DNA of 64,000 bases from Psilocybe cubensis. Its lineage: Eukaryota. Below the pieces are notes generated by a model. It saw nothing but the letters and a program-made list of their open reading frames with translations. It did no database searches and was not told the origin of the DNA. Made by a program: the position numbers and the translations under genes. Shown here one piece after another: positions 4,054 to 6,811 of the stretch. The stretch lies in NCBI GenBank assembly GCA_017499595.2, contig CM039008.1, forward strand, positions 1,798,001-1,862,000. The letters are read 5' to 3'. Positions within the stretch are counted from its first letter, which is position 1. The number at the start of each line of letters is the position of its first letter.

Positions 4054-6811
4054 ATGAACAAGCCAACTGGAGATTATGAGGCCGAGTTTACATCGGAGCA
4101 GAACATGCCAGTTCAATGTAATCGATGCAAACAGCAATTTGCACCGGGTACCCGGCTCCAATGGATGCATAATAAGCATCAAGGCGAAGGGCGTTACCTT
4201 TGTGGCTCATGCTACGAGTACTATTTATCGAAGAAAACTACGATACGTCGTGATAACAATCAGGGTCACAGTTAGTCTATCTTTAATATTTATTGTTAAT
4301 TGACTTTATAATCTTTATTAGAGTCCGAAATAGCAGCTCGTAATGTTAGAGCTTTGCCGGTTGCTTCAGCTGCCGCTCACGTTGGTCGTGGTGAGTAATG
4401 TTTAATCTTTGGAATAATGGTTTCTCATTTAAATTGAAAATTAATAGTAGATAATGCTGCAACTTCCGAAGCAGCTATAGTCCAGAAGCATATTGCTGCA
4501 GCGCAGCGTGATGGTAAGTTAACCAACTATCCGGTAATGTCCAAATCTGAACAATAATTAGAGCGCCTTGCACCTGTTGTTGCTGTGGGAAGAAATATTA
4601 CACAAAGTGTTGCATATGGTTCTCCAGTCACAAATAGGCCTGCTCGACAACAAGGCGTTAGCTCTTTTGGAGCTCTGTCTGGTCCTGGATCGACTGTTGT
4701 GAATGTCGGTCTCAAAGCCAAATCGCTTACCTTTCCACAAAAGGATTTACTCAATCCGGGCTATCAAGAAGCACATGGATTTTATAACGAGATGCGCCAA
4801 CATTTTGCGGCTATGGCGTATAGCTCCGCAGCCAATGCAGAGCTTGTAGTGGTCAAAGTTTGGCTTTCTGTCCGTGTTCCGACCAAAAAAAGCCCAGTTC
4901 ATATTGCTGTAAGTAATTTGGTTCTTATTTCTATGATATATTCAGCTTAATATTGGTATATTTTAGGGTCTTCATGAGGCCGTTTCAAATATTCCAGTTC
5001 ATATAGGTCTAACTAATCTTAAACGGGTAATGTATTATGCTTTACTTCCTCAATTTTTGGAATGGTCAAAGGGGTTTCCTTTGCGTATCGATGACTGTGT
5101 TGTTAGGAATAAGTTATGGGTTGAACTTATTCCAAAACAGCCAGATGTTGATGCTATATCAGAACACTTTTTCAGTTTCAAAGGTCGGAATAAGCTTTCA
5201 AAGATTTTTACTCCGAAGCAAGGAATTGAACTATACCTTTGTATTACTCACCGCCTTTATGAGTCTATAATAGACCATATTACGGAGCCAAAGGAAACTT
5301 CTCATCGGCGGAATGATGAAATGCAGGTAAGTGTTTTACTAGGTTTCTTTTGTAATGAGAATGACTAATATATTTTAAAGCCTTCAGCTTCGCTTCATGG
5401 AAGTATAGCATCTAAGGCTGTAAAGCGCAAATATTGGGAATCAGATGTTAGTAAACATTTTTGTTCTACTTACAACCACAGACTTACTGCAATTTTAGAA
5501 TTTTGAGGCTGATCCAGTAGAGGGTCCATCACTTCAGCATACAGCAGATGAGCTAAAAAATGCACTTCAGCTTCAAGTCCCACCGCGCAAAAAAAATATG
5601 AAATCGTTATGTAAGTTTTAAATCTTTTTCTATGTTTAAAGTTAGAAAATGTACTAAATTCATGTTTTTTTATAGTTCAGACAGTTATTGAAGATGTTTC
5701 GTTCTTCAAACTACCACCTCCAGTTTCATTCAGCGACTTGGTTAAAAACCCAGATGAGCTTCAAAATCCCCAGCACTTTGCACCAATGAATGCAACTATT
5801 TCCTATGATCCTTCAGCTATACCGTTTAAAGGAGCTTTTAAATTGGCTCGCGTGGGATATACTTCTACGCCCTTTCTCGGCAGTCAACTTTCAAATACTC
5901 GTATTTGTATCAAGCAAATATTTGGTGGTATTGACCCAGTAACAGACAAGCCTATTGTTTACGAGGGTCAAACTCAGGCAAAAAAGGTCAGCATTGAATT
6001 GAACTGTCTTGGTTGGGCATCTGCTCTTATGGAACTCGTCTATCAGTAAGCTTTTATTCTCAAATATACTAAAAAGGTTCCAATTGCACTAATGCATGGT
6101 AAATTTATTAGGTTTATTCAAAGGGAAAAGCGCACCAGAGGAGTGCCTCCTTTTACTATTCCGGTTATGCGCTACGTCAACTCGGGTCTTGCTATTTCCA
6201 AGACCAACAATGCCAATGTCTACCTTTTGGAAGAATACATCGAAAGCAAATCTCCTACTGGTGATGCATGGTTTGTGAAATATCTCAATAACAGCTCAGC
6301 ACGCCCCGTTTATTTCGCGAATCCGGAACAAAATGAACGGTCACAATTCCTCTCGTTTGCACAACACATTCAATATATTGAGACAAAGGGACTTGCCTTT
6401 GTTTCTGATTTTCAAGGCACGTATATCTTGTTTACTAAATTGTTACTTTTCTAATTAGTGCAATTCCTGATTATTATAGGCGGACGAACCCTTCTAACAG
6501 ATCCTCAAATTATAACCCATCCGTCAGTAACCAGTTACTAATTTACATATAGCGGTAGCTGATATTAGCCTTATTGTTTTAGCTCAATACCAGGCCTTAT
6601 ATTTGGTGACGGAAACACAAAATTTGAAACATTTGCTCTCGAGCACGATTGTAACAAATTTTGTCAATTTTTTGGACTTCCTAAAATTGACCGACCTCGT
6701 ATCAATCTGGCCGACATTCCACCGCTAGTGGAATCGGATTCACTTCCCAGCCAAATTCGTCATCAGAAAAGCGATTCCGGGAGTGCAGATATGGAATTAT
6801 CAGAGGATTAA
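4054..6811 (+). CDS. Alpha-kinase (eEF2K/MHCK-like atypical kinase) with N-terminal C4 zinc finger; ~10 introns; transposon cargo
   Basis: CNRC...CGSC near the N-terminus. Kinase motifs PFKGAFKLARVG, ICIKQ, YLLEEYI, FVKYLNNS, FLSFAQHIQY, VSDFQG|GRTLLTDPQII, FGDGN, FALEHDCNKFCQFFGL. Stop TAA at 6809-6811. Start codon tentative. Confidence 0.88.

Follow-up and report, generated by a model that had tools for sequence, protein, structure and literature searches.

A predicted zinc-finger/alpha-kinase gene with a GC-AG intron as the probable second gene of an IS3EU-type transposon in Psilocybe cubensis

Why does a DNA transposon carry a gene for a protein kinase, and is the encoded enzyme complete? 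The question is raised by a gene at 4054–6811 on the forward strand of a 64,000-nucleotide stretch of Psilocybe cubensis DNA (contig CM039008.1, positions 1,798,001 to 1,862,000). We refer to this whole stretch as the window and use its numbering throughout. The gene lies within a 7,207-bp element at 3637–10843, opposite a transposase gene, and its product would combine an N-terminal C4 zinc finger with a C-terminal alpha-kinase domain. The completeness of the kinase turns on one intron with a GC donor in place of GT. The reading that we favor, and consider likely from the comparisons below, is that an autonomous IS3EU-type transposon carries this gene, still intact, as its second one, that GC-AG splicing gives a complete zinc-finger/alpha-kinase, and that this protein serves the element.

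The gene runs from an ATG at 4054 to a TAA at 6809–6811 and encodes 727 amino acids in 11 exons (4054–4270, 4322–4390, 4448–4513, 4562–4908, 4967–5326, 5381–5446, 5499–5610, 5676–6045, 6112–6416, 6480–6522, and 6583–6811). This model came from a script that enumerates introns and was then corrected by hand. The 10 introns are 48–66 nt long and have a GC content of 18–33%, compared with 42.9% in the exons, in agreement with the first-pass annotation, which was made from the letters alone and had counted about 10 short AT-rich introns. Nine of the donors are GT (GTAAGT, GTTAGT, GTGAGT, GTAAGC, and GTCAGT), and one is GC (aag/GCACGT at 6417). The closest database proteins come from P. cubensis, JR316_0010715 (P0001) and JR316_0010716 (P0086), with adjacent locus tags. 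Few substitutions separate the kinase of the window from P0001 over its full length, and it is also colinear with an ortholog from Hebeloma, P0013. Introns 4, 7, 9, and 10 are common to relatives.

The ninth intron is a phase-1 GC-AG intron of 63 nt at 6417–6479 (+; aag/GCACGT ... TTATAG/gcg). It is followed by a mini-exon of 43 nt (6480–6522, +), which encodes (G)GRTLLTDPQIITHP and with it the second catalytic Asp. Intron 10 (6523–6582, +; GTCAGT..TTTTAG, 60 nt) then brings IPGLIFGDGN back in frame, colinear with P0013. The donor at 6417 matches the consensus at −1, +1, +3, +5, and +6, and only +2 deviates. The intron as a whole has the features of a U2-type GC-AG intron: a GC donor that is otherwise consensus, an AG acceptor, and a length typical of the host (63 nt, the other nine being 48–66). 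The GT at 6421 lengthens the exon by 4 nt and shifts the frame. We combined all GT, GC, and AT donors at 6395–6469 with all AG acceptors, and six of the combinations leave DFQ and LTDPQ in a single open frame. None of them is GT-AG, two are GC-AG (6417–6479 and 6417–6458), and four start with AT. The earlier claim that the GC donor at 6417 is needed therefore holds, since no GT-AG intron keeps both motifs in frame. A frame with GT donors throughout (6421–6479 and 6523–6568) is open, but it has an unrelated peptide in place of GGRTLLTDPQIITHPS and breaks the invariant spacing of DFQG and LTDPQ, and it was rejected. In a survey of 21 family proteins of at least 450 aa, LTDPQ starts exactly 8 residues after DFQG in all 10 that have both motifs, and the spacing is the same in the GC model. 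We think it probable that U2-type GC-AG splicing of 6417–6479 takes place.

How is this intron built in related genes? We fetched 31 metagenomic loci that align with exon 9, their best segments being 34–76% identical to the query exon. The intron at the mini-exon was scored by direct motif distances, as a map based on tblastn is unreliable around a mini-exon of 14 aa. In 27 related genomic loci, a phase-1 intron splits the Gly codon behind its first base, exactly where it does in the window, with a GT donor in 25 and a GC donor in two. The GC loci, L002 and L005 (G/GCATGTTTA), have a mutual nucleotide identity of only 74%. Two contigs, L001 and L022, are without the introns that L002 and L005 carry in the kinase and the transposase; they include the mini-exon and read DLQG-GRNLLTDPQIITHP-KLG. 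Because these introns are missing from both genes, we take L001 and L022 to be assembled transcripts. A FastTree phylogeny of the exon 8–9 region gives (L005_GC,(L001,L002_GC)), with supports of 0.999 and 0.894, and the window is found elsewhere, among GT lineages. Since L001 nests in the GC clade and the window lies outside it, the tree indicates that the GC donor arose at least two times at this intron and that it is very probably spliced in the L002/L005 clade.

A single intron-less contig, L022 (1–1332; compare L002, 2921–4423), holds a spliced kinase 3′ end and, on the opposite strand, a spliced transposase 3′ end. It looks like the merged, overlapping transcripts of convergent genes, in which case both genes of a related element would be expressed in an environmental sample. 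A separate observation concerns intron 8 of the kinase gene (6046–6111), which has no counterpart in any of the 24 related genomic loci that could be scored there. As it is absent from all of them, intron 8 appears to be lineage-specific, either gained in the lineage of the window or lost in all others. The annotation of P0001 uses another acceptor at this intron, giving QKKRTRG compared with QFIQREKRTRG in our model, and our model fits the relatives better.

Is the predicted product a complete alpha-kinase? The motifs that the first-pass annotation had named are all found in the 727-residue protein where it had placed them, and the set is complete only under the GC-AG splice. GAFK (aa 465–468) and CIKQ (aa 490–493), with its Lys, are the motifs of the N-lobe. 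LLEEYI (aa 574–579) contains the EE of the hinge, and FAQH (aa 618–621) the His of the zinc site. DFQG (aa 635–638) is the catalytic loop, the last codon of which is split by the GC-AG intron, and LTDPQ (aa 643–647), with the downstream Asp, is encoded in the mini-exon. The GxGN loop is GDGN (aa 660–663), and HDCNKFC (aa 673–679) is the C-terminal zinc site. The alpha-kinase domain is encoded by exons 8–11 (5676–6811, +), as judged from alignments to eEF2K, ChaK of TRPM7, and the Entamoeba histolytica alpha-kinase, and from the fold of the ortholog P0013. With the Pfam profile Alpha_kinase (PF02816; cut-off, 21.3 bits), exon 9 alone scores 23.8 bits, while P0013, P0007, and P0001 score 50.9, 41.8, and 31.4 bits, respectively.

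In HMMER alignments of P0013 with eEF2K and ChaK, the zinc-site His, D-x-Q-G, T-D-P-Q, GxGN, and HxCNxxC are aligned (single-sequence E values of 3e-4 and 9e-4), and the EE hinge is aligned as well when a profile is used (E = 4.5e-9 to 1ia9), with the E. histolytica alpha-kinase as a further match of that profile alignment. DFQG and LTDPQ align with DLQG and LTDPS of ChaK and with DIQG and YTDPQ of eEF2K. FAQH and HDCNKFC align with FSH and HHCNSCC of ChaK, residues that we take to include its zinc ligands, and with SH and HACNRIC of eEF2K. The HMMER alignments to the solved kinases cover the C-lobe only. Among 37 sequences of the family, G-x-F-K and the Lys of C-x-K-Q do not vary, and the window has them too; we infer that the Lys of CIKQ is the ATP-binding Lys and that GAFK is the phosphate loop. 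The Lys of GAFK stands where, we presume, canonical alpha-kinases have an Arg.

An AlphaFold2 model of P0013, made with an alignment of 37 sequences, has a mean predicted local distance difference test (pLDDT) score of 71.5 and three well-modelled domains, of which the kinase reaches about 90. By VIA-align, the modelled kinase domain resembles the solved alpha-kinases of E. histolytica (4KUJ; Z = 16.9, rmsd 3.1, 223 residues aligned), TRPM7 ChaK (1IA9; Z = 16.7), MHCK A (3LKM; Z = 15.2), eEF2K (7SHQ; Z = 14.5), and ALPK1 (8ZD3; Z = 13.8), and Foldseek finds 1ia9 at E = 1.4e-7. Thus, the structural comparison with eEF2K and MHCK A that the first-pass annotation had suggested gives an alpha-kinase fold in the model of the ortholog. 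The N-terminal CxxC...CxxC finger that it had pointed out is also present (CNRC..CGSC; CxxC-x24-CxxC, aa 22–53, 4117–4212, +), and 13 of the 21 family proteins have the motif. In the P0013 model, the finger is built with confidence as two beta-hairpins and a helix (pLDDT about 79–94, blocks 11–50). On exon 1 of the window and on relatives, every Pfam zinc-finger family stays under its cut-off; FAM76, zf-H2C2_2, and GATA give sub-threshold matches only. A GATA-type finger (PF00320) was considered and rejected: P0025, a relative from Hohenbuehelia grisea, reaches 16.2 bits where 26.8 are needed, and the spacing of the Cys pairs is 24, compared with C-x2-C-x17-20-C-x2-C. The model indicates that the zinc finger is real and lies outside the Pfam classes.

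Between the finger and the kinase is a conserved middle domain (4753–5281, +; aa ~182–338), which spans intron 4 and is possibly a ubiquitin-like beta-grasp. Its exons have no Pfam match. The P0013 model has pLDDT >90 at residues ~220–350, and residues 211–332 resemble plexin RBD, UBX, and UBL domains weakly (Z = 6–7), with a TM score of about 0.45 to ubiquitin-like clusters. The middle domain may have a ubiquitin-like fold, which we regard as a hint and not as an assignment.

The element that contains the gene has the ends of a cut-and-paste transposon. A 53-nt terminal inverted repeat (TIR) at 3637–3689 (+), starting with TATGG, is 100% complementary to that at 10791–10843 (−), which ends with CCATA, and the first 25 nt of the TIR occur in the window only at the two element ends (0 expected by chance). 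The TIRs are bordered by target-site duplications (TSDs) of CTCCCC at 3631–3636 and 10844–10849, the left flank ending ...CCGTCTCCCC directly before TATGG. When the element and one copy of the TSD are removed in silico, the frame of a GH35 beta-galactosidase is continuous again. As the TIRs are perfect and removal restores the frame, we think that the data point to a recent insertion into a GH35 exon. Parts of this exon lie at 3500–3636 and 10844–11077, and the gene is also found at 12654–13571; a Pfam match to Glyco_hydro_35 lies just right of the element (E = 1.3e-15), with BetaGal_dom2 and dom3 further downstream.

The transposase gene is on the reverse strand at 8907–10634, so that it and the kinase gene converge inside the element. 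It is intact, with about 463 codons and about six introns of 53–60 nt, and its product is colinear with P0086, with few substitutions. P0086 matches the Pfam profile rva_4, "Integrase core domain," with 30.2 bits (cut-off, 26), and P0025 with 40.9 bits; the single open reading frames of the window's transposase have no Pfam match. IS3EU elements of Pucciniales (IS3EU/GingerRoot superfamily) are described, in the accessible part of Kojima 2025 (PMC12730594), as having 6-bp TSDs and TIRs of >30 bp with TAYGG..CCRTA ends, and criteria for IS3EU are also given in PMC10045372; TIRs that begin and end with TA are among the criteria for the superfamily. The window element has a 6-bp TSD, TIRs of >30 bp with such ends, and an alpha-kinase opposite the transposase. 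It looks to be an autonomous, recently mobile IS3EU-type DNA transposon, an assignment made from the TSD, the TIR ends, the gene arrangement, and the integrase-core profile.

Has the kinase gene been in such elements for long? A transposase homologue is found in 16 of the 31 loci. It is convergent in 13, at 145–861 bp past the last kinase match, and in three it lies upstream, beside distant kinase relatives. In nine of the other 15 loci, the downstream flank is shorter than 1 kb. Pairwise ratios of nonsynonymous to synonymous substitution rates (dN/dS) for the kinase N-lobe and core are 0.06–0.24 (10 pairs with dS of 0.03–1.2). DNA contigs that bear the same organism label differ from the window at 88 positions, and the 40 of these that are listed comprise 17 synonymous, 6 nonsynonymous, 12 intronic, and 5 upstream differences. 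Because 16 of the 31 diverged loci show the same pairing and dN/dS is low, these results provide support for the earlier proposal of long residence in the element under selection. The word "cargo," which the first-pass annotation had used for the gene, is wrong, as the gene behaves as the conserved second gene of a transposon family. In H. grisea, the gene model of P0025 (1100 aa) joins an rva_4 transposase and a zinc-finger/alpha-kinase on one strand. This fusion suggests either another gene order and orientation in that element or a mis-joined prediction.

What weighs against an intact kinase gene in the service of the transposon? The public annotation of P0001 uses a donor of the 6421 type and skips the mini-exon, giving in frame DFQGTSIPGL without LTDPQ. 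GC donors make up about 1% of introns, and splicing of 6417–6479 at this locus is argued from the comparison with relatives; DNA contigs of the same organism label, from three runs, cover the kinase introns without joints, as DNA contigs would. One of the two other GC loci, L005, has its kinase copy at 8068–10549. One in-frame stop interrupts the kinase region, the 10 kb of flank on each side hold no transposase, and L005 may be a stranded, decaying copy. The family also has other degenerate copies, with seven stops in L015 and one each in L009 and L026. The identity of the ATP-binding Lys is drawn from invariance in the family and not from a residue-level structural alignment, and the protein that was folded is the Hebeloma ortholog, ~45% identical to P0001 (itself nearly identical to the window protein), and not the window protein itself. 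Kinase activity and an effect on transposition are predictions. In co-folding, P0086 with residues 1–350 of P0001 scored 0.36, compared with 0.00 for the best of three controls, which supports binding weakly, in a run without the family alignments. The mark set for such runs, at least 25% contact agreement between runs with a partner pLDDT of at least 52, was passed by 51 of 78 solved complexes and by 2 of 108 mismatches. Scores of 0.60 or less with the mark passed were seen in only 5 of the 78 solved complexes and in all 4 passing mismatches of 180.

The most direct alternative is that this copy is defective in splicing. A T-to-C change would have turned an ancestral GTACGT donor into GCACGT, and use of the cryptic GT at 6421 would then give either a frameshift or a skip of the mini-exon, so that the protein would be kinase-dead, lacking the LTDPQ Asp, and the copy non-functional or a scaffold only. 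This donor is GT in 25 of the 27 related genomic loci. The perfect TIRs and TSD mark a young insertion, from which selection need not yet have removed a recent disabling mutation. In the annotation of P0001, it is precisely a donor of the 6421 type that is taken, and the exon is left out in frame. We regard this public model, which misses a 43-nt exon with a catalytic residue, as a probable annotation error due to the GC donor and the tiny exon. Against a defective copy, P0001, with ~2% of its residues different, has the same G-T (GGN-AC) context, which suggests weakly, as the third base of the Gly codon is not readable from a protein, that the state is not private to this copy. The remaining gene is intact, the same-label variants are mainly synonymous (17 compared with 6, among the 40 listed of 88), and the donor keeps its consensus everywhere but at +2. 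In addition, an independent clade keeps the GC donor over 26% nucleotide divergence, with a dN/dS of 0.095 to the spliced contig nested in it. We think it unlikely that the window copy is defective.

Could the weak donor instead be a regulatory switch, with an isoform spliced at 6417 that has an active kinase and another, from 6421 with the skip, that is in frame, 13 codons shorter, and dead? Both products are open reading frames, the GC donor has apparently arisen at least twice at this very intron, which borders the exon of the catalytic loop, and GC-AG introns are, as general knowledge has it, over-represented among alternatively spliced introns. Yet one skip in three would keep the frame by chance, strong GT donors are found in most members of the family, and both spliced contigs include the mini-exon, which makes such a switch quite improbable. 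Least probable of all, and hardly credible to us, is that the kinase is a host gene lately captured, a passenger without a role for the element. DNA transposons do capture host genes, and TET/JBP genes are reported, in the accessible text of PMC12730594, to move passively between fungal transposon families. Here, however, kinase and transposase have stayed together in 16 of the 31 diverged loci as well as in Psilocybe and Hohenbuehelia, and their linkage is reported for rust IS3EU families in the same portion of that paper. The architecture of zinc finger, middle domain, and kinase is common to the family, and purifying selection is seen. Furthermore, alpha-kinase domains are rare in fungal kinomes, with one domain in the studied set, according to the part of PMC2838846 available.

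The reading that we prefer, a working second gene of the transposon, would involve the following events. An IS3EU-type cut-and-paste element (3637–10843) would have inserted recently into a GH35 exon of a Psilocybe-like agaric. Its 727-aa product would have a C4 zinc finger, perhaps a ubiquitin-like middle domain, and an alpha-kinase that keeps the nucleotide-binding, catalytic, and zinc-site residues, and the complete enzyme would require splicing of 6417–6479 from the GC donor, so that the LTDPQ mini-exon is included. This protein is predicted to be an active Ser/Thr kinase working for the transposon. Our best guess is that it is an accessory transposition factor, which the zinc finger or the ubiquitin-like module would target to the transposase or to the element ends, and that its substrates would be the transposase or those host factors by which transposition or silencing is controlled. 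A bolder version, which we offer as a possibility and a doubtful one, is that fungal IS3EU elements need the zinc-finger/ubiquitin-like/alpha-kinase protein as an obligatory, catalytically active co-factor when they transpose, that the recurrent GC donor by the mini-exon could switch splicing between an active and a dead kinase, and that most alpha-kinase genes in the counts for basidiomycete genomes belong to transposons and not to host signalling. If the protein were such an obligatory co-factor, a protein kinase would be a core factor encoded by a transposon, and it could phosphorylate the transposase, host repair proteins, or silencing proteins.

With the solved alpha-kinases, the window protein has in common the EE hinge, the zinc-site His, DxQG, the metal-binding Asp of TDPQ, GxGN, and HxCNxxC, together with the fold as seen in the ortholog model, at an identity of 12–20%. 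The N-terminal partners are different: a C4 finger and a possible ubiquitin-like domain here, and a channel, WD40, calmodulin-binding, or SEL1 regions in the solved proteins. Unlike those genes, the one in the window is borne by a transposon. Second genes are known from other two-gene transposons, for example PIF/Harbinger, with a Myb-like protein, and CACTA, with TnpA; these proteins are DNA-binding adaptors without enzymatic domains. Like these second genes, the gene in the window is a conserved non-transposase gene with a putative nucleic-acid-binding module and a presumed transposase partner, whereas its product, unlike theirs, is a predicted protein kinase. The P. cubensis pair JR316_0010715/JR316_0010716 differs by few substitutions from both window proteins and, with adjacent tags, has the same organisation.

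How much of this is already known? According to the accessible text of PMC12730594, an alpha-kinase gene lies opposite the transposase in every fungal IS3EU family that carries TET, and the rust families carry TET/JBP between the two genes. The window element is like the Pucciniales elements in its 6-bp TSD, long TIRs with TAYGG..CCRTA ends, transposase with an integrase-core profile, presumably of the DDE type, and opposed alpha-kinase. It is unlike them in its host, an agaric and not a rust, and in having a GC-rich tandem array (7454–8105) instead of TET/JBP. That paper, in the text accessible, names the kinase in passing only, with no description of domains, introns, or selection, and in our search for literature on alpha-kinases with transposons or IS3EU in fungi it was the only one, as far as its accessible text goes, to link both. 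The link of IS3EU and alpha-kinase is thus in print already, in one sentence and for rusts, so that the window element extends known work and is not a discovery. New are the member from an agaric, the description of the domains in the kinase protein, the evidence that it is under selection, the GC donor that recurs next to the mini-exon, and the probable misannotation in P. cubensis.

To our knowledge, cut-and-paste transposons rarely carry enzymes besides the transposase. A conserved and selected protein kinase in a transposon would suggest a further, unexplored level at which fungal transposons are controlled or manipulate their hosts, and IS3EU copies probably inflate the numbers of alpha-kinases counted in the kinomes of basidiomycetes. 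Because it looks autonomous and recently mobile and interrupts a beta-galactosidase exon, the element is a candidate for a transposon that is still active, and its genus is one in which biotechnology now takes an interest.

Two further features of the element concern its repeats. A near-copy (11/12) of the terminal 12-mer TATGGAAAGCCA is found at 3899–3910, 262 nt inside the left end and upstream of the kinase ATG; a search for subterminal repeats with this 12-mer gave that internal copy only. The tandem array between the convergent genes has a period of ~50 nt and ~11 copies, each with a short palindrome (GACGAGCAGC..GCTGCTCGT). Its GC content is 56–58%, compared with ~40% in the genes, and it is part of a GC-rich block at ~7000–8900. 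Related elements have only 145–861 bp where the window has this array.

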